A DNA stretch of 43,809 nucleotides from an uncultured bacterium (GCA_964595705.1 CAZQSC010000001.1:1-43809); one strand, 5' to 3'. Positions 3,304 to 26,950 are shown, counted from the first letter of the stretch. Translations and numbers: made by a program. Notes: a model not told the origin generated them from the sequence alone.

Positions 3304-4719
3304 ATGAAAAAGTCGATAGTGGTATTCTTGACGTTTGTCTTCCTTCTGAGCTGTGCTGCGCAAGCGCTCGCGTCGTCTGAGGCCGAGGAGAATCCGAAGA
3401 AGATAGATGTATCGGGCAAGATCATCTACCGGGGACGTTGGTACAACCTGGACTTCAACGATGACTCCGACAAGGGATCGCTGAACCGGAAGAACTACTA
3501 CGGCGACATCACGCTGACGATGAAGTTCCACCCGATCGAAAATGTGAGCGGATGCTTCCAGTTTTACAAACAGGTGTACGGGACTGGCCTGGCCCAGTAT
3601 AATACGATTCAGACCGGCGAGACCGTAGCGGGGAATTGGGCGGTGAACGAAGATGAGAACTGGGAGATGACGCTGATGCAGGCCTGGGGCAAGGTGGACC
3701 TTCCCTTCGCTCCTGTCTCCCTTAAGGTCGGACGACAGCCGTTGGTGTTCGGAAACGGGCTCTATCTGAACACAGGGATCAGCAAAACGTTTGCTATGGT
3801 GGCCGATGCCTGCTTGCCTTTTGCAAAGGTCTCTGTGGGTACAGCCAAGCTCTACGAGGGAGTCCGCGAAGCAGATGACGACGCGGACATCAACTTCGTT
3901 ACGGTGAACAAGACCGTGGGGCCTCACAACTTAGGCCTCTTCGTCGCCCACGAGAAGGACATTTCTTCCTCGAAGGCGGCCCCGGCTGCGGCCATTGTAG
4001 ACAGCCTCGAACGGACGATCACCAACATCGGCGTGACGGGTAAGGGAAAGATCGGTCCTCTCACCTATAAAGCCGAGTTCGACTATATGGTCGGTAAGGA
4101 TAAGTCCACTAAGACGGTGAATCCGGCAGATGTGGACATCGCCGGATATGCCTTTATGGCCGGAGTAGGACTTCCTCCCCTTAGCATCTTCAAGCTGGGG
4201 TTGGAAGTAGGCCTGGGGTCCGGGGATGATGTGGGTACAAAGGACAAGAACGAGGGGTATATCCCGCCGGGACCGTTCTATCCATATGCCTGGGCCTACG
4301 AATATCGGTTCATCCACTGGATCTGGAACAGCTCTCGCTTCCTGAAGGGAACGGTCGGCGTGAGGGAGGCTCTGGCGCCCGGGTTGGAAAACACCACCTA
4401 CTTGAAAGCCTCAGCCAGATGGAAGCTGAACAAATGGCTCAGTGGAGCCGAGCAGTTCATCTACCTGATGGCAACGGAGCCCAAGCCGATTAAAGATAAT
4501 ACCGGGGCCTCCTTTGACCCGGGCAAAAACATCGGCATTGAGATTGATACGATTGTAAATTGCGTCATAAACAAACATTTCTCGTATCAATTCATCTTCG
4601 CTTACGTGCTCCCTGGCAATTTCTTCGATGGGCGCATCAAAGGCTTCGATGCAGCCAACAAACCCATCGGGGCTGACAATGCTTGGGGTATCCGTTCACA
4701 GTTTGCTTTCACCTTCTGA
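3304..4719 (+). CDS. porin-like outer-membrane beta-barrel protein (possibly alginate-export/AlgE-like family)
   Basis: I moved the start to ATG 3304 (AAGGAG SD about 7 nt upstream). This gives the signal peptide MKKSIVVFLTFVFLLSCAAQALA. Other support: a LKVGRQPLVFGNG motif, a strand-like alternating pattern, and the C-terminal ...FAFTF (terminal Phe typical of BAM substrates). Confidence 0.65.
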   Translation: MKKSIVVFLTFVFLLSCAAQALASSEAEENPKKIDVSGKIIYRGRWYNLDFNDDSDKGSLNRKNYYGDITLTMKFHPIENVSGCFQFYKQVYGTGLAQYNTIQTGETVAGNWAVNEDENWEMTLMQAWGKVDLPFAPVSLKVGRQPLVFGNGLYLNTGISKTFAMVADACLPFAKVSVGTAKLYEGVREADDDADINFVTVNKTVGPHNLGLFVAHEKDISSSKAAPAAAIVDSLERTITNIGVTGKGKIGPLTYKAEFDYMVGKDKSTKTVNPADVDIAGYAFMAGVGLPPLSIFKLGLEVGLGSGDDVGTKDKNEGYIPPGPFYPYAWAYEYRFIHWIWNSSRFLKGTVGVREALAPGLENTTYLKASARWKLNKWLSGAEQFIYLMATEPKPIKDNTGASFDPGKNIGIEIDTIVNCVINKHFSYQFIFAYVLPGNFFDGRIKGFDAANKPIGADNAWGIRSQFAFTF

Positions 4720-4835
4720 GAGCGCTACCCCTCGCATAGCAGAGTGCTCAGGGAGGGCAACGCTCTAGTGGAAACCCTCGGGGGAGGGCTCTCATCAACC
4801 GGAGCACTCCCCAGAAAAGCATAAAAGGAGGGAAA

Positions 4836-5990
4836 ATGTTTAGATTAAATAAGAAGTTGATGTGCTTGTTTTGCTTACCAGTGCTCCTCTTTGTGTTGAT
4901 CTCTGGCTGTGCTAAGGAGAAGAAAGTTTATAAAATAGGGGCTATTTTTGCCATCACTGGACCGGCTTCCCCCTTAGGAACCCCAGAGAGAGACACGGTA
5001 AAGTTGCTGGAAGAGGAGATAAATCAGGCTGGCGGGATCAATGGCCATCGGCTGAAAGTGATCATTTACGATACCGCCGGAGATGAGACCAAATGTCGTA
5101 TGGCGGTCAAAAAACTTATCTATAAGGATAAGGTTCTGGCCATCATAGGCCCCAGCAGAAGCGGCACCACTTTGGCGATCATAGATGAGGTCCAAAAAGC
5201 CGAAATCCCTCTTGTCTCCTGCGCTGCCAGCATAAAGATTGTCGAGCCTGTCAAGAAATGGGTCTTTAAGACTCCCCAGTCCGACGTGCTAGCCGTAGCC
5301 AAGATTATAGACTATCTAAAAGAACGCAATATCGACAAAATCGCCATAATCAACGTCTCTAATCCCTATGGGATAAGTGGAAAAGAGCAGCTGGACATAC
5401 AGGCCCCTCAGGCAGGCATCCAGGTTGTGGCCCACGAGGAGTTCGGTCAGAAAGACCCGGATATGACCGCCCAGTTAACCAGGATCAAAGGCACAGATGC
5501 CCAGGCAGTGATATGCTGGGGAACAAATCCTGGGCCGGCTATTGTGGCCAGAAATATGAGACAACTGGGAATGCAAATCCCACTTATCCAGAGCCACGGC
5601 ATTGCTAACAAGAAGTTTATTGAACTGGCTGGAGAGGCGGCAGAGGGAGTCGTCTTCCCGGCAGGCAGACTCATTGTGGCCGAAGAGCTCCCCGACAGTG
5701 ACCCGCAAAAATCCCTCTTGCTGAAATACGCCAACGACTTCCAGCAGAAATACGGTCGTAGTGCTGATACCTTTGGGGGCCATGCCTGGGATGCCCTGCA
5801 ACTGGTGGTCAGCGCCCTCAAGAAGGCAGGTCCAGACAAGGCAAAGATCCGGGATGAGATAGAAAATACCCGTAACTTCATAGGCACCGGAGGGATATTT
5901 AACTTCTCCCCCACTGAACACAACGGTCTGACCAAAGAGGCCTTCGTTATGGTCACTATCAGAGACGGCAATTGGACTCTGCTGAAGTAG
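4836..5990 (+). CDS. ABC transporter substrate-binding lipoprotein, Leu/Ile/Val-binding-protein (LivK/LivJ) family
   Basis: 384 aa with an AAGGAGGG SD and a lipobox (LISGC). YKIGAIFAITGPASPLG... and the overall type-I periplasmic binding protein pattern fit. It is followed by livHMGF-type genes. Confidence 0.9.
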   Translation: MFRLNKKLMCLFCLPVLLFVLISGCAKEKKVYKIGAIFAITGPASPLGTPERDTVKLLEEEINQAGGINGHRLKVIIYDTAGDETKCRMAVKKLIYKDKVLAIIGPSRSGTTLAIIDEVQKAEIPLVSCAASIKIVEPVKKWVFKTPQSDVLAVAKIIDYLKERNIDKIAIINVSNPYGISGKEQLDIQAPQAGIQVVAHEEFGQKDPDMTAQLTRIKGTDAQAVICWGTNPGPAIVARNMRQLGMQIPLIQSHGIANKKFIELAGEAAEGVVFPAGRLIVAEELPDSDPQKSLLLKYANDFQQKYGRSADTFGGHAWDALQLVVSALKKAGPDKAKIRDEIENTRNFIGTGGIFNFSPTEHNGLTKEAFVMVTIRDGNWTLLK

Positions 5991-9708: not shown

Positions 9709-9780
9709 GTGATCATTGAGTCATTAGTCATTGGTCATTAGTGAATTCAATTTACCACTCACTAATTAACCAGTTAACTA
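9709..9780. repeat. heptad-repeat intergenic element, copy A
   Basis: TCATTGAG TCATTAG TCATTGG TCATTAG (9713-9741), then GTGAATTCAATTTACCACTCACTAATTAACCAGTTAAC. Its parts recur at 15471-15550, 21130-21202, 31397-31468 and 14518-14559. Confidence 0.6.
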
Positions 9781-17988: not shown

Positions 17989-18378
17989 TTGTCTAACAGG
18001 GAGATTTTCCTAAAATACCGGCTGCCGGCGATCCTATGGGCTACCTTTATATTCATCGGTTCCTCTATTCCCGGCAAAACACTGCCCCCTCTGCGCATAT
18101 TCTCCTGGGATAAGTTGCTTCACATATGCGAATTCGGCATATTGGGACTCCTGCTGGCCAGGGCCTTCAGTAGTTGGCTGAACACAGAGAAGACAGGAAC
18201 ATTAGTAACCTTTGCTGCCTCCACCGGCGTCCTCTGGGCACTGCTGGATGAAGTCCACCAGATGTTTGTCCCGGGCAGGGACGCCAGTATTTACGATTTC
18301 CTTGCCGATACACTGGGAGTGATAGTTGCCCAAGTCATCTTCACCCAGATCTGGCAACGAAAGCCTCACCGTCCTTAG
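17989..18378 (+). CDS. VanZ-like family membrane protein
   Basis: TTG start after AAGGAG. 129 aa with four hydrophobic segments. DKLLHICEFGILG and LLDEVHQMFVPGRDASIYDFLADTLG match VanZ-like proteins. Confidence 0.75.
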   Translation: MSNREIFLKYRLPAILWATFIFIGSSIPGKTLPPLRIFSWDKLLHICEFGILGLLLARAFSSWLNTEKTGTLVTFAASTGVLWALLDEVHQMFVPGRDASIYDFLADTLGVIVAQVIFTQIWQRKPHRP

Positions 18379-18680
18379 CCCTGTGTCACAGGCGTCTGGA
18401 ATCCAATGCTTTTCTCCCCTCGGGGAGCTACTTTAATCTGACCAAATTGGGCCTCGTATTTTTCGACATTTTCTCTCAGGGCCTTCTCCAGCAGTTTAGC
18501 ATGGTGAGGGGTCATAACAACTCTGGCGTAAACCCTCCCTTTAGGCGCTCCCGGAAGCACCCTGGCGAAATCGATAATAAACTCTGAAGGGGTGTGAGTG
18601 ATCACAGCCAGGTTGGAATAGATTCCCTCGGACTCCTTCTCTCCCAGTTCGATGTTGATCTTTTGGCGTTTCTCTCCCAT
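18375..18680 (-). CDS. DUF3467 domain-containing protein
   Basis: 101 aa. IELGEKESEGIYSNLAVITHTPSEFIIDFARVLPG....V.ARVVMTPHHAKLL is the DUF3467 pattern as I remember it. Its stop overlaps the convergent VanZ stop (TTAG). Confidence 0.75.
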   Translation of the reverse strand: MGEKRQKINIELGEKESEGIYSNLAVITHTPSEFIIDFARVLPGAPKGRVYARVVMTPHHAKLLEKALRENVEKYEAQFGQIKVAPRGEKSIGFQTPVTQG

Positions 18681-18883: not shown

Positions 18884-18919
18884 GTTGAATCCCAAAAAAA
18901 GCAGAGAGTTACTAAAATC
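18884..18919 (-). terminator. candidate rho-independent terminator of the minus-strand OMP operon
   Basis: On the minus strand, AGCAGGG pairs with CTCTGCT (7 bp, one G-U) around a 16-nt loop, followed by TTTTTT. It lies 26 nt after the stop at 18945. Confidence 0.45.
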
Positions 18920-18944
18920 CCGCCCTGCTTGTGAGAAAAAGTTT

Positions 18945-20279
18945 TTAAAATCGGTAAGTTGCGGTTACAAACAGCCTGTCTGCCTTGTGCTTCTGCGTTA
19001 AATTGCCCTCGGTCTGTTCCCAGCTCCCATGGACCCAGGCAGCGTCGATGGAGAAGACTCTGTCCACCGTGGTGCCCGCACCCAGGGTGAGCCATCTCCT
19101 CTGCTTAGTGGTTCGAATAGCTGAGCCGTAGCCCGATCGGGGGCCAAGATAAGCAACCGGGTCGGTGTAGAACCCCGCCCGCAGTTTTATCTCCGTAAAA
19201 GGCACGGAGACCTCGCCTCCGAAGTGCAGCCTCCAGACCTCCTTATATTTCAGCCGGAAATCGCTACTGCTGCCAAAATCTGAGGGCAAATCTTTATATT
19301 CTGTCTGCTTCCAATCGGCATAATGGGCGCCAAAGGCCAAAATCAGCCCAGGGGTGGTCCAGGAAACTCCAAAGCCAAACTGGTAAGGGAGCTTAACCTT
19401 GTATTCGAGGAAATAGGCCACATCAGGCCAATCCCAGGTAAAGATACTGTCCGGGGTAACAGTTCTGTATTCATCCCACCAGTTCTTCTCCACCTTGTAG
19501 GTTACGGGGGAAGAAACAGTCGCTGCAAATTTAAGACTTCCCTGGCCTTTGAGGATTGTTGCCAGCTTCAGGTTTGTGCCGCTATATTGGTCAGAACAGC
19601 GGATATGGCCGTAGAGGCTGTCCAGATCGGCGTGGACTTGTTTACCGTCGGCCAAGCTTAGATCCCATCTCAGGTTGCTGTCTCCGGTCCAGAAGTTGAT
19701 TGCCCCCCCTACTGAGAGATTGGGAGAAAGGTCGATTGCCCCGGCAACCGACCATGCCCCGATACCACCGTCAATCGTCATATGTTCTTGTTGCTGAAAG
19801 CGAAAGTCGTCATTGTAGCCCAGGGCGGAGGCTCCAAACTCAAAATCTTTCAGCCTGTTAAATCCTATAGCAAAGACAAGGCTGCCCCGAGTGGTGGGAA
19901 CAGGGAGCACTGCACCGATAGAACTCAGGCGGGCGCTGGTAATCTGTTCAGAGTGCGGGGAATCTGGTCTAAAGAGAGAATCCACTTGTCTTTTCCAATA
20001 AGGAAGGAGAGTGCCGGAGAGCTGCATCTGTCTGACTTGGGCAAGTCCTGCTGGATTCCAGTAGAGAGCGGAGAGGTCGTTAGCTACCGCAATGTAAGCC
20101 CCTCCCATCCCCATTGCCCTTGCTCCCAGCCCGCTGAAATTGTCGACAGTAAGTTCCTCGGGACCAAGTAGGGGGTCTTTGTAGTCTAATATCTCCTGGC
20201 AAAACCCACCTCTAGGGAGTAGAATCACCACCATAATAGCTCCCATCAGTGTTCTAATCGTGCTACTTGGAATTCTCAT
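18945..20279 (-). CDS. FadL/TodX/PorV-like outer-membrane beta-barrel protein
   Basis: 444 aa with a signal-like N-terminus. GARAMGMGGAYIAVANDLSALYWNPAGLA is the N-terminal hatch motif shared by FadL-type transporters and PorV-like barrels. The C-terminus is ...VTATYRF. The start overlaps the upstream stop (ATGA). Confidence 0.7.
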   Translation of the reverse strand: MRIPSSTIRTLMGAIMVVILLPRGGFCQEILDYKDPLLGPEELTVDNFSGLGARAMGMGGAYIAVANDLSALYWNPAGLAQVRQMQLSGTLLPYWKRQVDSLFRPDSPHSEQITSARLSSIGAVLPVPTTRGSLVFAIGFNRLKDFEFGASALGYNDDFRFQQQEHMTIDGGIGAWSVAGAIDLSPNLSVGGAINFWTGDSNLRWDLSLADGKQVHADLDSLYGHIRCSDQYSGTNLKLATILKGQGSLKFAATVSSPVTYKVEKNWWDEYRTVTPDSIFTWDWPDVAYFLEYKVKLPYQFGFGVSWTTPGLILAFGAHYADWKQTEYKDLPSDFGSSSDFRLKYKEVWRLHFGGEVSVPFTEIKLRAGFYTDPVAYLGPRSGYGSAIRTTKQRRWLTLGAGTTVDRVFSIDAAWVHGSWEQTEGNLTQKHKADRLFVTATYRF

Positions 20280-20998
20280 CTCTGCCTCGCTTCTTTAGAA
20301 TCTGGCTTTCTCCTCCTTTTGGACGTCTCCTTCTTCTTCTCTTCCTTCTCCTCGGTGGAAGTCCGAGATCTTTTTCTCTCCACGGCTTTTTTCACCTCAG
20401 TTGCCCCCTGGGTCTCCTGTCCTATCACCCTCTTTTCTGAGCGACTCTCTGGCCGGGAACGAATCCAGAGGGATGTTTCTTCCCCAGTGATCGTCTTTTC
20501 GATCTCTGAAGAGGTGCGGGATGTAGCCCTGTCGTATCCCCGTCTTCTGGTAGGTTGGGGTTTCTCCTGCCGGTAGTACCTCTCTCCCCACCAGGGATCC
20601 CAGTAGTAATAGCCTGGATAATCATAATAACCCCAGCTGTAATAGGAGGGGCTATACCAGGGGTGGTAGACCCTAACCCAGTATAGATCATCCCAACAGG
20701 GTTCATACCAGTAATATGTCTCACACCAGTTCCAATAGTCCCAATAAGAGCGCCAGCGGAGGTAAGAAGGCCAGTAAAAGCGCGATCTGAACCAGTATGG
20801 CTCGTCCCAGCCAGGGACATATTGATAGTAGAAATAGTAGTGGTATTCCGGGACGAGCTTCTCTTTCTGTCCCTGAACCACCGGTGGTTCCTCCGATACC
20901 CGGGTGAAAAGCTTCACCTGGGTGTAACAACCGGCAAGGGCAAGCAGCCCCAAGCTGAGCACCACTGTAAGCAGTGCCCTCTTGTTTCCTTTAAACAT
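20276..20998 (-). CDS. lipoprotein with an extremely Tyr/Trp-rich core and a highly charged C-terminal tail (no family recognised)
   Basis: GGAGGTG SD 7 nt upstream of ATG 20998. Signal peptide plus the lipobox LAGC. Residues 52-142 are about half aromatic. The tail is rich in R/K/E/S. The gene is translationally coupled to the downstream barrel gene. Confidence 0.7.
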   Translation of the reverse strand: MFKGNKRALLTVVLSLGLLALAGCYTQVKLFTRVSEEPPVVQGQKEKLVPEYHYYFYYQYVPGWDEPYWFRSRFYWPSYLRWRSYWDYWNWCETYYWYEPCWDDLYWVRVYHPWYSPSYYSWGYYDYPGYYYWDPWWGERYYRQEKPQPTRRRGYDRATSRTSSEIEKTITGEETSLWIRSRPESRSEKRVIGQETQGATEVKKAVERKRSRTSTEEKEEKKKETSKRRRKPDSKEARQR

Positions 20999-21129
20999 AG
21001 AAAACCACCTCCGATAAGCTCAAAGTCTTTTTCTCCCCATCTATAAAACGCCTCAATGGAAGAATAGTTGCATCAGGTTCCTGCAGGCCTAAGATCAGCA
21101 AGATCTTTAACTTGACCAAGAAGGGTAAT

Positions 21130-21202
21130 TTGGTGAGTGGTGAGTTCGCCCTGCCCGGTCACTCACTGATGACTAATGACTGATGACCGATGACTAATGA
21201 CC
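21130..21202. repeat. heptad-repeat intergenic element, copy C
   Basis: TTGGTGA GTGGTGA (21130-21143), a spacer, CACTCAC, then CTGATGA CTAATGA CTGATGA CCGATGA CTAATGA (21166-21200). GTGAGTG (21133-21139) is complementary to CACTCAC (21160-21166). The reverse complement matches copy A. Confidence 0.65.
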
Positions 21203-21215
21203 TATATTAATCTTC

Positions 21216-21971
21216 TCAGAAATATTCTAAATAGACCACCCTCAACTCTCGATTGGGCTTAGAGCTATCCTTGGCATTTCGGAGCAGGTCTTTTACATCC
21301 AGTTCGAGGTTCAGGCGGCTGGCGAATGTCCAGCGCAGACCAGCGTTCAGATAGCCCCCTCCTGAACCTAAAGCATTGGGGCCGTTGTCGTTCTGGGCCA
21401 GGTCGTACTCAGCCAGCACCACTAAGTCTGGCCCTAAGTATTTGTCCAGACCAAAGTAGCCAGAGATGTCTTTATCCTCGTCGCCTTTTTCTAAGCTGTA
21501 ATTAACCCCAGCGTGAAGACCACACGGCCCCAGAAAAGAGTACCCTTTACTGAGAGTTAAATAGAACCCCTTTGACTTGGTGCCATATCTTTTCAGCTCC
21601 TTATGATACTTGCCGAATCCCTGGGAGTCGAAGCCCACTGCCACAGCAGGATAAAGCCCTCCTTCATCGAACAGGCGGATTTTCACTGCCACGCCCACCG
21701 TTGGGTTCCAGACCACGGGTTGATTGCCGATAATCTGGGTGCCGCCGAAGCAAAGTCCTACCAGAAAACTGTCGGTCAGCCCTACATCAACCCCGGCCAG
21801 AATCCCCCCTTCGGAGAACACCCTCAGGTCCAGAGTAAAGCTTCCCCGGGGTAGAAGTCCAGCAGTAGGGCATTCTACCAGATCCTGTGGCTCTATCTCG
21901 CTCTGCTGTGCCCAGCTTAAAGAGCAAAAGACTACAATTGCCAACAACACCAGTGAAAATTTCTTCAACAT
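21216..21971 (-). CDS. small outer-membrane beta-barrel protein (family not recognised)
   Basis: 251 aa. Signal peptide MLKKFSLVLLAIVVFCSLSWAQ, alternating-strand pattern, and C-terminal ...RVVYLEYF with a terminal Phe. Confidence 0.6.
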   Translation of the reverse strand: MLKKFSLVLLAIVVFCSLSWAQQSEIEPQDLVECPTAGLLPRGSFTLDLRVFSEGGILAGVDVGLTDSFLVGLCFGGTQIIGNQPVVWNPTVGVAVKIRLFDEGGLYPAVAVGFDSQGFGKYHKELKRYGTKSKGFYLTLSKGYSFLGPCGLHAGVNYSLEKGDEDKDISGYFGLDKYLGPDLVVLAEYDLAQNDNGPNALGSGGGYLNAGLRWTFASRLNLELDVKDLLRNAKDSSKPNRELRVVYLEYF

Positions 21972-22123: not shown

Positions 22124-23500
22124 CTACTCCTTCTTCTCTCCTACCTCACCCGATTCTGCAGCCTTTTGAACTATATCTTCCACTTTCACCGAGAGGTCCT
22201 TCACAATGTTATCTTTAACCAAGAAGACAGTAGGGCTTTGTTTCGTTTTAACATATACTAAGTCACCCTTTTTCTTACCCAGCAAAAGTTCCACTACTGG
22301 ATTTTCATCTTTCCAGAGTCTGGCTATGATCTGTGGCTTATCCAGTCCGTATTTGGAAAGCCTTCCGGGTTTTTCTGTCACGAACTGCTGGGCTTTCAGT
22401 CCCTTGATATCCCACAACATACCGCTGATCTTCCAATCTTTTGCCTTCCTCTCTACCGGCTGGTTCAACTGCCAGCTTCCGGAGGTATCTTTAACGCAGA
22501 GGATGGTAGTATCCGGGTAGATAAGTTCCAGTTTATTAATTTCCTTTACCTCAAATTCAGCTACAGTCTTGTCCCGCAGGTCGAAAGGTGTTTTTCGTAA
22601 CTGTTTAACTAAGTCTGCTCCAACCAAGAAGACGGGACTGCGGGATTCATCCCAGGCATAGTAGTTCTCGCCCTTCTTGTCGCCGATTCGGAGCAGTTTC
22701 CTCGCCTTATCCTCTCCCACCCAGAGGGTGACCTCCACCTGGGGTTTGTGCAACCCATATTTTCTGAGGCTCTCCGGCTTCTCGTCCACGAATTCCTTGG
22801 CCTTGGCATTTTTCAGTCTGCTCAAAAGCCTCTCTATCTCATTCTTGTCTGCCTTCGTCTTAAGCGGTTTCTCCATTTGCCACTGGGGGCCCATCTGAGT
22901 GCAGACTATCCGCTGTCGCCCTTGGGCAAGTTCCAGTTTCCTAACCTCTGCCTTGTCAAAGGCAAGCACCCTTTTGTCTCGCAGGTCGTAAACGGTCTTC
23001 TCCAGTGAACTCAACAACCAGGAACGGAGGGTAAAAACCTGGGGGCGAGAGCTCTTCTGAGCAAAGACAAAATCACCGGTAGGGCTTCTGTCACCTAACA
23101 GAAGGGTGTCGGTGGTGCCTTTTTCTAAGTCTAAATACACTTTCACATTGGGATACAGAAGGCCAAACTCCGAGAGATTGGCAGCGCTGTCGGCCACCAC
23201 CTGCTCGGCCTTTGCACCCTCTAAGTTGCTAACAATTCTGTCTATTGCATCTTTATCTCCCTCAGTCTCAATGGGGTAGATCAGTCTCCAATCACCGTCG
23301 GGCTTTTTCGCACAGACTATTTTCTTCTCAGGATAAATCAAGGTTAATTTCTGCACATCCTCCTTTGAGAAGAGAAAGACCTTTTGTTCTGCCTCCTTCT
23401 GCTTCTTCATCTCTGCCGGACGCCGGACTTCATACAACCAGACATAAAGCCCTAAGGCCACCAGCACACCAGCCAGAATAGCAGTGGTTTTAAACTTCAT
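22124..23500 (-). CDS. DUF4340 domain-containing protein (membrane-anchored, three internal repeats)
   Basis: 458 aa with the N-terminal anchor TAILAGVLVALGLYVWLY. Three repeats share the pattern KL(T/E)LIYP....I.C.K...G.W.L..P...(K/E)AD......(L/I)...L...KA..FV. The position downstream of a GldG-like gene is the usual context for DUF4340. Confidence 0.8.
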   Translation of the reverse strand: MKFKTTAILAGVLVALGLYVWLYEVRRPAEMKKQKEAEQKVFLFSKEDVQKLTLIYPEKKIVCAKKPDGDWRLIYPIETEGDKDAIDRIVSNLEGAKAEQVVADSAANLSEFGLLYPNVKVYLDLEKGTTDTLLLGDRSPTGDFVFAQKSSRPQVFTLRSWLLSSLEKTVYDLRDKRVLAFDKAEVRKLELAQGRQRIVCTQMGPQWQMEKPLKTKADKNEIERLLSRLKNAKAKEFVDEKPESLRKYGLHKPQVEVTLWVGEDKARKLLRIGDKKGENYYAWDESRSPVFLVGADLVKQLRKTPFDLRDKTVAEFEVKEINKLELIYPDTTILCVKDTSGSWQLNQPVERKAKDWKISGMLWDIKGLKAQQFVTEKPGRLSKYGLDKPQIIARLWKDENPVVELLLGKKKGDLVYVKTKQSPTVFLVKDNIVKDLSVKVEDIVQKAAESGEVGEKKE

Positions 23501-23686
23501 TTCTTCCTTCTCCTGTTGTTAAAGTTAGTCTTAAATTAATCTTTTTCAAATTTAACTGCAAAGCCCCCAAAGAAGAGGCAAAGTTCGCTAAGCTTGTTTT
23601 CTTTCGGCTTGTTGACTAACTTCTCACCCCCAATGCCTTGCTTTTTTGGCGTCTCCTCTGCGATCTTTACAGCTAAATCTTCCTTC

Positions 23687-25228
23687 CTATCTTTTTCTTC
23701 TCCACCAGATGCTGACGCCGGTGATTAACACGGCAGCGGGGTAGATTATCAGCACCAACCAGAAGATGGTTTTGGCTTGGTTCTTGGTAAGTTGCAGGGG
23801 GTTAAATTCGGGACTTTTGGGCCGGATGGAGATAAGCTCTTCCTCCTCGGTCAGCCAGTTGATGCAGTTGAGGAACAGGTCCCCGTTGGCCTGCTGCTTG
23901 AAGAACTGGTTGTCAGCAAAGTCAGAATCTCCAAAGACCACCAGACGGGTTTTCCCCTTGGTAGCCCCTGTAGCTTTGGGCTCCCCACTGACAGCAACAG
24001 CCAGAGAGACGGGCCCTTTCTTGTCGGTCTTGGGGTCGAATCTGGGTACTTTGGCCTTCGCCTTCACAGGGGCCAGATCCGTCTCTGCCCAGCTCTGGGG
24101 CGAAGTCTTGGCCAATTCTGTCCCCTGCACTCCCCCCTTGCTCTGTTTCGACAGCGAAACCGACCGGGCCAGGGGATAGAAGCTCATCACTCTGAGATCT
24201 TTGGTAATGGGGTGATTTCCATAAATAGAGATTATGGGCATAGCGTAGCTAACCCCGAACAGGCTTCCTATGCCGCTGGCATCTACTACAAAGTCATTGC
24301 CGACCACGATCCCCCAGGAGGCGGCTATCCCTTCCAGGCCGGAGTAGACCCCTGGGTCCAGAAGGAAAAATGCCTTGCCTCCCCCATCCAGATAGTCTCG
24401 GATCATAGACAATTCCTTCACCAAATACTCTTTCTGGGGGCCAGCAGCAACCAGCAGGGAGCAGTCCTCAGGCACCTTATCCTTCTCTGCCAGAAGTAGG
24501 CTCTTAGGCTCGTAGTTGTTGTTCTTCAGCTCATCCCTGACCACACTGTAGCCTTCCCGGCCGGTGTCATCGAGCTCCTTCTCTCCATGTCCCTTAAGGA
24601 AATAGACCACCTTCTTCTCCTCTTTGCTCACCTTTAGAATGGCACTGGTGAGCTTCTTCTCGGTGGCCTTGCCAGTGAACCTCTCCTCACGGGTTCCGGA
24701 CTCAACCACTACAGTCTCATACTCCTTAATACCATATCGCCTTGCTTTCTCCGGACTTCTGTCTGGATCGACAAACTCGAAGGATACCTTACGTGAACGT
24801 GACCGGTAGCTTTCCAAAAGGTCCTTAAGCCTCTGTCCCCGGGCCTGCCGGTAAAAGGCAATGACCTTCACATCCCGGTTTAAGTTCTTCAGCACCTTAA
24901 TTGTCTGATCCGAAAGGCTGTAAATTTTAACCTTGGTGGTATCAAAGACCCAATGATGGCGCGTGCCGATGAAATTAACCAGCACAACTATCGCTAATAC
25001 AACGACTACCATAAGGATGGCATTTGTACCGTACTGGGTAGACCTCCGGCCCCAGAATTTTTTTACTATATCGAAACCTAAGGAGAAAAAGACGACCAAG
25101 AGGAGAAGGCCTCCAATTAAGGGTATACCCACTTTTAGATTGAATGACGGGGCGAGAGCAAGAAGAATCAGTCCAACCAGCAGTAATCCGGCCCCTACTA
25201 AACCGTAGATAGGCAGATATCTTCTCAT
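23687..25228 (-). CDS. GldG-like auxiliary component of an ABC-2 'gliding-motility-type' transporter
   Basis: I moved the start to ATG 25228 (GGAGGTG SD 5 nt upstream; the ORF track starts at TTG 25255). N-terminal TM segments and the C-terminal TM IFWLVLIIYPAAVLITGVSIWW flank a large periplasmic domain, as in GldG. Confidence 0.8.
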   Translation of the reverse strand: MRRYLPIYGLVGAGLLLVGLILLALAPSFNLKVGIPLIGGLLLLVVFFSLGFDIVKKFWGRRSTQYGTNAILMVVVVLAIVVLVNFIGTRHHWVFDTTKVKIYSLSDQTIKVLKNLNRDVKVIAFYRQARGQRLKDLLESYRSRSRKVSFEFVDPDRSPEKARRYGIKEYETVVVESGTREERFTGKATEKKLTSAILKVSKEEKKVVYFLKGHGEKELDDTGREGYSVVRDELKNNNYEPKSLLLAEKDKVPEDCSLLVAAGPQKEYLVKELSMIRDYLDGGGKAFFLLDPGVYSGLEGIAASWGIVVGNDFVVDASGIGSLFGVSYAMPIISIYGNHPITKDLRVMSFYPLARSVSLSKQSKGGVQGTELAKTSPQSWAETDLAPVKAKAKVPRFDPKTDKKGPVSLAVAVSGEPKATGATKGKTRLVVFGDSDFADNQFFKQQANGDLFLNCINWLTEEEELISIRPKSPEFNPLQLTKNQAKTIFWLVLIIYPAAVLITGVSIWWRRKR

Positions 25229-25232
25229 TTGC

Positions 25233-26009
25233 TCACCTCCATCTCTGGGATTCAATCACCTTAACAGTTAAAAAGAGGAAGAATGTTATGAAACTCAGGT
25301 AAAAAACGACATCCTGGGTGTCGATCACCCCTTTTTCAAACGGGAGCATATGGGTGAGGATAGAGAGATAGGAGAAGATCTTCCCGGCGCCAGGGCGGGT
25401 GAAGATAGAGGCTGAGCCGATCACCCAGAAGAGCAACAGGGCGCCAAATCCCAGAACTACAGCGATAATCTGACTCTCGGTGAGCGATGAGGCAAAGATG
25501 CCCACAGCAATAAAGGCTGCCCCCATCAGAAGCACCCCCAAATAGCCCGAAAGCACCGGCCCCCAGTCCGGATGGCCATAGGCTCCCAGTATAATTTGGT
25601 AAAGCACAGTTAAACCTATGATGATAGCATACAAGGCAAAACAAGCAAAGAACTTGCCCAGCAGAGTCTCGGTTATCCGCACCGGAGAGGTCATCAAAAG
25701 CTCCATCGTTCCCGCCCTCTTCTCCTCGGCGTAAAGCCTCATAGTGAGCATAGGAATGATGAACAAAGAGATGAAACTGATAAGCCCGAACATCCCTCTT
25801 ATCACCTGCTGGTTGAGATTCAGAGAGGGCATTCCCCCATAGCGAGATGCATATTGCATATAGTAGAGACACTCATTGCTGAATGTGACGGTCATCCCAT
25901 AAAAGAAATAGCCAGTTATGACAAGAAAAACTGCTGCCAGCACATAGGCAATGGGGGAGGTGAAGTATGTTTTGAGCTCTTTCTGAAATATGGCGGCGAT
26001 ATTCCTCAT
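25233..26009 (-). CDS. ABC-2 type transporter permease (GldF-like)
   Basis: 258 aa with about 6 TM segments. The N-terminal FQKELKTYFTSPIAYVLAAVFL is typical of ABC-2 permeases. It overlaps the ATPase gene by 4 nt. Confidence 0.85.
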   Translation of the reverse strand: MRNIAAIFQKELKTYFTSPIAYVLAAVFLVITGYFFYGMTVTFSNECLYYMQYASRYGGMPSLNLNQQVIRGMFGLISFISLFIIPMLTMRLYAEEKRAGTMELLMTSPVRITETLLGKFFACFALYAIIIGLTVLYQIILGAYGHPDWGPVLSGYLGVLLMGAAFIAVGIFASSLTESQIIAVVLGFGALLLFWVIGSASIFTRPGAGKIFSYLSILTHMLPFEKGVIDTQDVVFYLSFITFFLFLTVKVIESQRWR

Positions 26010-26950
26010 CCTTCTGCCTCCTCTGTAGTTAGCTGTAAGAATATCTCCTCTAAGCTTAACCCAACGCGTCTTATCTCCAACAGTCCAAATCCGCTACTGG
26101 TAATTGCTGCGGCCAATTGCGACCTGATGTCTGTCTTCACTTCACTCTCTACAAAGAAACCGTTCCTCTGTCCATTGCCCCCAGGCTCTATGCTAACGGC
26201 TGTGACCTGGGGGATCTGTTTGATCTTCTGCTCCACCTGATCAACAGGTCCTTCCACCTCTACATAGATTCTTTCGGAGCCTTTCAGGCGGGCGGTGAGA
26301 TTCTCAGGGGTGTCTACAGCAGCGATCCTGCCCTTATTGATAATGACCACCCTCTGACAGGTGACACTTACCTCCGGCAGGATGTGGGTGCTGAGGATGA
26401 TGGTGTGCTCTCCTCCTAACTCTTTGATCAACTGGCGAACCTCGATTATCTGCCGGGGGTCAAGTCCTATGGTAGGCTCATCTAAGATTAACACCTCCGG
26501 GTCGTGGATTAGGGCCTGAGCCAGTCCCACTCTCTGTTTATAGCCCCGGGAGAGTTTGCCGATAATGGTCTCCTTCACCTCCTGGAGGCCGCATTTCTCC
26601 ATCGCTGCCTCTGCCCTGCTTCTCTGCTGTTTGGGCTCGATGCCCTTTATCTTTGCGTTGAACTCCAGGAAATACCTGACAGTCATATCGTTGTAAAGCG
26701 GTGGGTTCTCAGGCAGGTAGCCTATTCTTTTTCTCACCTCCAGGGAGTCGGTGAAGACATCGTATCCGGCCACCCGGGCGGTGCCTGCCGAGGCGGGCAG
26801 GAAGCAGGTTAGAATGCGCATAGTGGTGGTCTTGCCCGCACCGTTGGGCCCCAGGAATCCGAGTATCTCCCCCTTTTCTACTCGAAAGGATATGTCGTCC
26901 ACCGCCCTTGTTCTGCCGAAATATTTGGTGAGATGTTCAACCTCTATCAA
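26006..26950 (-). CDS. ABC transporter ATP-binding protein (GldA-like)
   Basis: TTG start with an AAGGAGG SD 7 nt upstream. Walker A GPNGAGKTT, signature LSRGYKQRV and Walker B LILDEPT are present. Confidence 0.9.
   Translation of the reverse strand: MIEVEHLTKYFGRTRAVDDISFRVEKGEILGFLGPNGAGKTTTMRILTCFLPASAGTARVAGYDVFTDSLEVRKRIGYLPENPPLYNDMTVRYFLEFNAKIKGIEPKQQRSRAEAAMEKCGLQEVKETIIGKLSRGYKQRVGLAQALIHDPEVLILDEPTIGLDPRQIIEVRQLIKELGGEHTIILSTHILPEVSVTCQRVVIINKGRIAAVDTPENLTARLKGSERIYVEVEGPVDQVEQKIKQIPQVTAVSIEPGGNGQRNGFFVESEVKTDIRSQLAAAITSSGFGLLEIRRVGLSLEEIFLQLTTEEAEG

Follow-up and report, generated by a model that had tools for sequence, protein, structure and literature searches.

A candidate outer-membrane module of two β-barrels and a tyrosine-rich lipoprotein in FCB phyla outside the Bacteroidota

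The 43,809-nucleotide stretch of DNA analysed here (GCA_964595705.1 CAZQSC010000001.1:1-43809; hereafter the window) comes from an uncultured bacterium that its named relatives place in Candidatus Latescibacterota. On the minus strand it encodes three consecutive proteins: a small outer-membrane β-barrel, a lipoprotein rich in tyrosine and tryptophan, and a larger barrel (the big barrel). The original prediction, made from the sequence of the window, had described the three genes as exported, and all three open reading frames (ORFs) and their export signals are present. We propose, tentatively and at somewhat less than an even chance, that the genes form a conserved outer-membrane module of the Fibrobacterota-Chlorobiota-Bacteroidota (FCB) phyla other than Bacteroidota, composed of an obligate barrel-lipoprotein pair and a facultative small barrel and serving a type-IX-linked role in biogenesis. 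No publication describing the three-gene module was found in the literature searched.

The core of the proposed module would be the obligate pair, in which a FadL-fold barrel paralogous to BamG is matched with a dedicated lipoprotein. In Bacteroidota, BamH inserts its conserved, lipidated N-terminus as a wedge into the BamG barrel, and there is also a bamG2-bamH2 operon (PMC12578637); in many FCB species bamG and bamH are adjacent (PMC12611786, Supplementary Table 1). Because of this wedged N-terminus and this adjacency, the invariant lipidated N-terminus of the module lipoprotein (Cys-Tyr-Thr-x-Leu) is envisaged as a docking element for the big barrel, which would serve as a platform and not as a fatty-acid channel; the Tyr-rich low-complexity core and the polybasic tail would then hang off the docked anchor. 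The 12-stranded small barrel would be a facultative third partner, tying the module to an operon that encodes a PorY-like kinase, PorX and UbK (TsaE) and that regulates the type IX secretion system. Because of that tie, and judging also from paralogy, the process served is probably type-IX-linked cell-surface or outer-membrane biogenesis.

Linkage and distribution of the three genes

Gene linkage was assessed in 20 regions from related genomes, in metagenome contigs and in 80 named loci. Their synteny reaches well past the genus, and none of the three has a separately explained partner, so that the original reading of a single module withstood the refutation proposed for it. Synteny of the module was found in the Latescibacterota families f1, f3, f5 and f7, in Zixibacteria, and in metagenome-assembled genomes (MAGs) labelled Gemmatimonadota, Handelsmanbacteria and Ignavibacteria. 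There are three recurring arrangements. Type A (about 28 loci, from Latescibacterota and from MAGs labelled Gemmatimonadota and Handelsmanbacteria) runs from a histidine kinase through PorX, TsaE, the small barrel and the big barrel to the lipoprotein with its Gly-Cys-Tyr-Thr (GCYT) motif, the junction between the two barrel genes often overlapping. Type B has the order small barrel, lipoprotein, big barrel and occurs in Zixibacteria, in a MAG labelled Ignavibacteria, at locus L036 and in the window's genus. Type C has the lipoprotein followed by the big barrel, with the small barrel elsewhere behind kinase-PorX-TsaE (genomes G033 and G040). Genome G009 has the order PorX-TsaE-small barrel-lipoprotein-big barrel. 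The original prediction had singled out two barrels bracketing a lipoprotein as something other than a described system; the module is indeed without a known description, but the bracketing is only one of three gene orders.

The GCYT lipoprotein gene lies directly upstream of the big-barrel gene, often overlapping it, or directly downstream in most of the 17 Latescibacterota loci and in about 60 of the 77 named loci. The small-barrel gene is immediately upstream of the big-barrel gene in about 25 loci, sometimes with an overlap. Both the lipoprotein subtype and the gene order track the clades of the big barrel.

Distribution was examined in 41 Latescibacterota genomes. Full-length orthologues of the big barrel were found in about 34, the lipoprotein in 29, and the small barrel, always as a single copy, in 30. 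In genome G020 the pair has been duplicated together, so that two big barrels are encoded, each accompanied by a lipoprotein of its own. Conversely, no full-length orthologue of the big barrel and no match to the lipoprotein were obtained from the closed genomes G012 and G029, which have kept PorX-TsaE-small barrel.

Protein families of the two barrels and the lipoprotein

The big barrel (444 residues) has a signal peptide, the motif AMGMGGAYIAVANDLSALYWNPAGLA and a C-terminus ending in ATYRF. The hatch motif reported earlier (GMGGA..NPAGLA) is there, in the form GARAMGMGGA...WNPAGLA. An AlphaFold2 (AF2) model with a mean predicted local distance difference test score (pLDDT) of 85.8 shows a FadL-type barrel of 14 strands with an N-terminal hatch, and the residues of its NPA motif, N75-P76-A77, are invariant across 44 sequences of the family. 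When the model was used for a Foldseek search, the top three matches were BamG chains, followed by FadL, TodX and TbuX, with PorV at rank 46; template modelling (TM) scores of FadL, TodX and TbuX were 0.56-0.66. The 44-sequence profile searched against the PDB likewise placed BtBamG first (E = 1.9e-10), with a FadL homologue at 3.6e-7 and PorV at 0.26.

Hidden Markov model classification of both barrels returned weak matches, to FadL, BamG and PorV models for the big barrel and to YjbH for the small one, all of them below threshold. The big barrel scored 28.2 bits against a Pfam gathering threshold of 29.7 for PF03349 (Toluene_X), which is precomputed on most of its relatives and gives 57 bits for the orthologue at locus L117, and 50.3 against 250 bits for the BamG model NF053685. 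Scores with the PorV/PorQ models NF033709, NF033710 and NF033711 were 55 versus 90 (PorV_fam), 23 versus 250 and 13 versus 220 bits, and the match to these models is confined to N-terminal residues 52-99. The family has about 11 residues ahead of ARxMGG (QE....F.G.GARAMGMGG), a FadL-like length. In the window's genus this N-terminus carries a 13-residue insertion, modelled with a pLDDT below 50, which is absent in families f3 and f4.

The big barrel is on the FadL/BamG side of the superfamily and not on the PorV side. A PorV-like shuttle was rejected as its primary reading by fold rank, profile E value and tree, which corrects the PorV-like half of the earlier description. With PorV and PorQ of the type IX secretion system the protein shares the superfamily and the N-terminal GxGARxxGMGG motif, and the genomic tie of the module to PorX suggests a type IX secretion connection; the genome's own PorV/PorQ-like paralogues (about 300-350 residues), however, form a branch separate from the big barrel.

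The resemblance to FadL and TodX (PF03349) extends to fold, hatch domain, NPA motif and N-terminal length, and it is the basis of an alternative that we consider unlikely, namely hydrophobic-substrate uptake. Here the big barrel would be a FadL-type channel operating by lateral diffusion, the aromatic lipoprotein a substrate-binding or hand-over partner, and the small barrel an independent small porin. Relatives of the big barrel are annotated in their sources as long-chain fatty acid transport proteins, nearly all with a precomputed PF03349, FadL and TodX match its model at TM 0.6-0.66, the mature N-terminus has the FadL length with the NPA motif invariant, and the closest fold matches of the small barrel include a COG4313 hydrophobic channel. 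However, almost every genome of the phylum has the big-barrel gene, mostly in a single copy, none of about 100 loci has catabolic or fad-type genes next to it, and its recurrent neighbours are secretion regulators. The big barrel also has a fixed lipoprotein partner, which known FadL and TodX channels lack, and it is matched better by BamG chains than by FadL.

That partner is a bacterial lipoprotein with a signal peptide, a lipobox (LLALAGC) and an invariant cysteine, Cys24, followed by YTQVKLF. Its core (residues 51-143, 93 residues) is 48% Tyr/Trp/Phe (27 Y, 15 W, 3 F), in agreement with the aromatic composition noted originally, and ends in DPWW. The tail is disordered, consists of K, R, E and D to 49%, has a net charge of +12 and finishes in a basic end. 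The protein has no Pfam or NCBIfam match; its profile found only compositional matches to mollusc haemocyanin in the PDB, and a Protein Atlas feature search gave unnamed clusters only, at a recognition level too low to be reliable.

A word-based homologue search retrieved only four close relatives. Nevertheless, the gene beside each big-barrel orthologue encodes nearly everywhere the same architecture: a signal peptide, the invariant G-C-Y-T, an aromatic low-complexity core usually ending in (D/Y/S)PWW, a polar disordered tail and a basic end. A profile built from 18 of these lipoproteins matched 296 clusters at E ≤ 1e-3 among 1.84 billion representatives, with a median length of 205 residues. 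Among the best 149 matches, C[YFW]T occurs in 145 and PW[WYF] in 139. Only G-C-Y-T and the P-W of the PWW motif are invariant in the family, G-C being invariant in the 18 aligned relatives, and the alignment contains no conserved stretch of 7-10 columns. Where the lipoprotein gene lies downstream of the barrel gene, its product retains GCYTVL and the basic end (..KKRRR) and has a core rich in YGG repeats; the basic end therefore belongs to the protein itself and cannot be put down solely to the ribosome-binding site of the gene that follows.

Most members carry a further motif. In 128 members of the same set, CxxCH lies about 29 residues past the lipidated cysteine; 121 have both CxxCH and a His-Pro at +6/+7, 15 have neither, and seven and two have one only. 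The lipoprotein of the window is without both and so belongs to the minority. In the other members, HP...CxxCH may form a haem (c-type) or metal site. At locus L048 (CP070758.1), the gene upstream of the big-barrel orthologue (3568-4902) encodes a 444-residue protein that joins DUF4384 to an aromatic stretch with CxxCH and to a tail rich in Lys and Ser, and which may be a fused variant of the lipoprotein; at this locus a scan also flagged an ORF with GCYT and PW motifs downstream of the barrel. When the core of the mature lipoprotein was co-folded with the mature form of the big barrel, from 18 paired rows and with the fold of the partner uncertain, the scores were 0.04 and 0.01 against a mark of 0.32, which counts neither for nor against binding.

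The small barrel has a cleavable signal peptide (..SLSWA/QQ) and a C-terminal β-signal (..YLEYF), in keeping with the 251-residue barrel with terminal Phe first described, and its AF2 model has 12 strands (pLDDT 89.6, predicted TM score 0.83). Structural alignment with VIA-align gave FapF as the best match (Z 18.2, root-mean-square deviation 3.2 Å over 208 residues, 11% identity), followed by KdgM (17.1) and the COG4313 channel (16.8); further matches were NanC and the translocator domains of NalP and EstA (about 15.7; autotransporter β-domains about 15). The 12-stranded architecture is common to all of these proteins (Z 15-18), but identities are 6-16%, no motifs are shared, and there is no Fap, Kdg or passenger-domain context at the small barrel. 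No Pfam or NCBIfam family was matched above threshold. Instead, 352 relatives were found at E ≤ 1e-3, 42-63% identical outside the genus, which conserve family-specific motifs: an N-terminal PTAGL segment, GFDSQG and EYD. A structural atlas extends the family to Fidelibacterota, Calditrichota, Zixibacteria and Gemmatimonadota.

A relationship of the small barrel to YjbH/GfcD (PF06082) of group-4-capsule and exopolysaccharide loci was also considered. The protein scores 12.5 versus 24 bits with this family, over profile positions 77-133 of 658; weak matches at the model start occur in 30 of 44 relatives (best E 9e-6), and PF06082 is assigned to 17% of the members of one structural-atlas cluster. 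Such matches suggest at most a distant relationship. YjbH is about three times as long as the small barrel, whose surroundings contain no YjbE/F/G-like genes.

The FapF match raises a different possibility, distinctly unlikely in our judgement, in which the small barrel is a FapF- or autotransporter-like conduit that exports the unfolded Tyr-rich part of the lipoprotein for surface display as an adhesive, cross-linked or amyloid-like layer, with the big barrel holding the lipid anchor. The best fold match of the small barrel to the FapF amyloid-secretion channel, with autotransporter translocator domains next, is consistent with this, as is a low-complexity Tyr/Trp core (with YGG repeats in copies of the downstream type) followed by a disordered tail. 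The FapF match, however, is that of a generic 12-stranded barrel at 11% identity and is nearly equalled by the KdgM/NanC sugar porins; no Pfam match to a Fap family was obtained, and no fap or curli accessory genes are among the neighbours. Furthermore, the pair occurs without the small barrel in families f6 and f10, and the small barrel without the pair in G012 and G029.

Relationship to BamG-BamH and possible link to type IX secretion

Among known systems, BamG-BamH of the Bacteroidota β-barrel assembly machinery (BAM; PDB 9n2d, 9hiv/9hj3, 9hjm) offers the closest parallels. As in the module, a 14-stranded FadL-fold barrel is paired with a lipoprotein, often in one operon, the conserved lipidated N-terminus of the known lipoprotein contacts the barrel, and the big barrel finds its best matches, by fold as well as by profile, among BamG chains. 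There are also differences. The big-barrel family lacks the N-terminal extension of BamG (about 10-12 residues more than FadL has, with an (S/T)IFS motif among them) and has no bamD neighbour. The module lipoprotein is low-complexity and Tyr-rich, unlike the folded BamH of DNRLRE or carbohydrate-binding type; it has no such domain and no acidic surface-export signal after the cysteine, and its profile finds no BamH chain in the PDB. The canonical BamH-BamG-BamD operon, finally, coexists with the module in most Latescibacterota families.

One such operon is found in CP070758 (L128, CP070758.1 6902-10147), where a DNRLRE-domain, BamH-like lipoprotein, BamG and BamD form a canonical FCB BAM accessory operon outside Bacteroidota. 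Its BamG scores 169 bits over the whole BamG model and is encoded by a gene other than the big-barrel orthologue. A PorV/PorQ-like barrel lies 1.6 kb downstream of this operon. Orthologues of the canonical operon occur at separate loci in 13 of the 25 Latescibacterota genomes searched; with two queries, canonical BamG and a DNRLRE-type lipoprotein were not found in G000, G003, G007, G008 and G014. In canonical BamG copies ARxMGG is preceded by about 20 N-terminal residues that include the (S/T)IFS motif, and the phylum's own BamH-like protein matches the DNRLRE model at 78 bits and starts with C-DERK.

A quick maximum-likelihood search with IQ-TREE, with support from the Shimodaira-Hasegawa-like approximate likelihood ratio test (SH-aLRT), placed 27 big-barrel orthologues in one clade (SH-aLRT 100) and canonical BamG in another (99). 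Two BamD-adjacent proteins from Zixibacteria and Ignavibacteria make up a third (100), and the branching order among these clades and FadL is without resolution. The big barrel neither shares a clade with canonical BamG nor adjoins a BamH-type lipoprotein or bamD. Because a separate BamH-BamG-BamD operon is present elsewhere in most Latescibacterota families, and because the big barrel forms a clade of its own and has a short N-terminus, it is not canonical BamG.

Two further sequences in this analysis deserve mention. Contig C142 of G000 (385-1671, L033) encodes a second FadL-like protein of 428 residues that scores about 50 bits on the BamG model, as the big barrel does; there is no adjacent lipoprotein on this short contig, and its placement in the tree is without resolution. 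The big barrel of the MAG labelled Gemmatimonas phototrophica (L117, CAMAVQ010000066.1) takes almost the same place in the tree as that of a Handelsmanbacteria MAG, nested among Latescibacterota. Because of this tight grouping, the label may be unreliable or the contig mis-binned.

A lineage-specific replacement of BamG-BamH, with the pair acting as BAM accessory barrel and lipoprotein in the window's lineage, is less probable still than surface display. The five genomes in which the canonical proteins were not found would fit it, as would G014, where the big-barrel orthologue is the sole match of the BamG model, and the genus-specific 13-residue insertion, which gives a BamG-like N-terminal length. 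Nonetheless, both the canonical operon and the pair are present in most families, the insertion is without (S/T)IFS, poorly modelled (pLDDT below 50) and missing from f3 and f4, and G000 is a 91% complete draft with a second, equally scoring BamG-model match on contig C142.

The proposed link of the module to type IX secretion derives from PorX. The small barrel follows kinase-PorX-TsaE at about 28 named loci and in genome G009, an order also seen in g8 and f4 genomes where the pair is elsewhere or was not found. PorX was identified at 669 bits against a cut-off of 300. In P. gingivalis porX and ubK1 (TsaE) are adjacent, and UbK1 phosphorylates PorX (PMC13241743). PorX is present in 39 of the 41 Latescibacterota genomes, and PorX together with SprA was found in G000 and in every module-bearing genome tested.

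Several observations weigh against a type-IX-linked module of an obligate pair and a facultative small barrel. Nearly all members of these phyla have PorX and the type IX system, so that co-occurrence cannot discriminate; the PorX neighbourhood could reflect inherited synteny instead of a common function. Families f6 and f10, with genomes 95-99% complete, contain the pair but yielded no small barrel, and f4 (G008, G014) contains both barrels but yielded no lipoprotein. The sequence after the lipoprotein cysteine has no acidic export signal, unlike that of Bacteroidota surface lipoproteins. The FadL-length N-terminus and NPA motif kept by the big-barrel family are compatible with a transport role. 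Finally, many of the 80 loci are close kin and not independent, and the taxonomic labels of MAGs may be wrong.

A chance neighbourhood of three envelope genes without a functional module is very improbable: each gene does occur without one of the others in some genomes, but they are adjacent in three different orders across phylum-level lineages, overlap translationally at both junction types, and include a pair that was duplicated together in G020 and of which neither gene was found in G012 and G029.

Within the module reading, a more specific version is possible but doubtful. In non-Bacteroidota FCB phyla, the machinery for type IX secretion or for assembly of the cell surface might include the module as an unrecognised set of outer-membrane components, made up of the 12-stranded barrel of the PorY-PorX-UbK operon, the BamG-paralogue barrel and a disordered Tyr-rich lipoprotein clamped by its Cys-Tyr-Thr N-terminus, the last perhaps binding haem or metal in most members, though not in that of the window.

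Layout of the locus and implications of the module

The coordinates of the three genes and of the associated features are collected in Table 1. A Shine-Dalgarno-like GGAGG precedes the starts of the small-barrel and lipoprotein genes. The last two genes are coupled, as had been predicted, through an ATGA in which the lipoprotein stop overlaps the big-barrel start (..CAGAGATGAGAATT..). A terminator-like hairpin does follow the third gene, but at other coordinates than the 18884-18919 given originally, and its fold is weak: an imperfect 8-bp stem with a long loop at -16.1 kcal/mol, which is unremarkable (z = -1.1) and was not picked up by a consensus terminator scan.

Table 1. Features of the three-gene locus in the window.
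Feature	Position	Strand	Description
Small barrel	21216..21971	-	251-aa exported 12-stranded outer-membrane β-barrel; family unnamed; basis: ORF and AF2 model
Spacer, 217 nt	20999..21215	-	Dispersed heptad-repeat element and GGAGGTGG ribosome-binding site of the lipoprotein gene
Lipoprotein	20276..20998	-	240 aa; lipobox LAGC, aromatic core, charged disordered tail
Big barrel	18945..20279	-	444-aa exported 14-stranded FadL-fold barrel with N-terminal hatch
Imperfect hairpin and U-run	~18899..18930	-	15 nt past the big-barrel stop; possible intrinsic terminator of the unit

The 217-nt spacer has no significant fold (z = -0.74). At about 21130-21202 it contains a heptad-repeat element, in which GTCATYR units, read on the minus strand, precede an inverted repeat. 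The same array of heptad units occurs at 9720-9738 of the window, against a chance expectation of none, and the element looks like a dispersed intergenic repeat family.

Upstream of the module on the same strand (22124-26950) are genes for an ATP-binding cassette (ABC) ATPase, a GldF-like permease (155 bits), a GldG-like protein (105 bits) and a DUF4340 protein; both bit scores are below cut-off, and the ABC ATPase is a putative one, assigned from its position. A link of the module to this GldAFG-like ABC-2/DUF4340 cluster, which the original prediction had raised, was rejected, as the association recurs only in contigs of the same genus; the recurrent neighbour is the kinase-PorX-TsaE (UbK) operon. 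Downstream, at 18375-18680, lies a gene for a DUF3467 protein. The window belongs to a draft genome of 2.6 Mb in 321 contigs that is 91% complete.

At about 20-23 type A loci elsewhere, two further genes are convergent to the module, for example at L112 7810-10959 (minus strand) and L090 7138-7827 (minus strand). One encodes a 1049-residue protein with a Peptidase_MA_2 domain, PD40 β-propeller repeats and a C-terminal Omp85 barrel, the other a 229-residue lipoprotein without a family.

That FadL-fold barrels can act as platforms for partner proteins and not as channels has been recognised only recently, for PorV, PorQ and BamG. From known FadL and TodX channels the big barrel differs by an obligate lipoprotein partner, the lack of a catabolic gene context and near-universal conservation in the phylum, and the module, if real, would be a further, widespread example of such a platform, with an unusual low-complexity Tyr-rich lipoprotein as the partner. 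Two protein families without a name are defined by the work as well, one of GCYT lipoproteins and one of 12-stranded PTAGL barrels, each with hundreds of metagenomic clusters. Outside Bacteroidota, the module would provide the first candidates for structural genes that are physically joined to the PorX/UbK signalling operon, through which the output of PorX/UbK regulation would become testable in Latescibacterota, Zixibacteria and their relatives.

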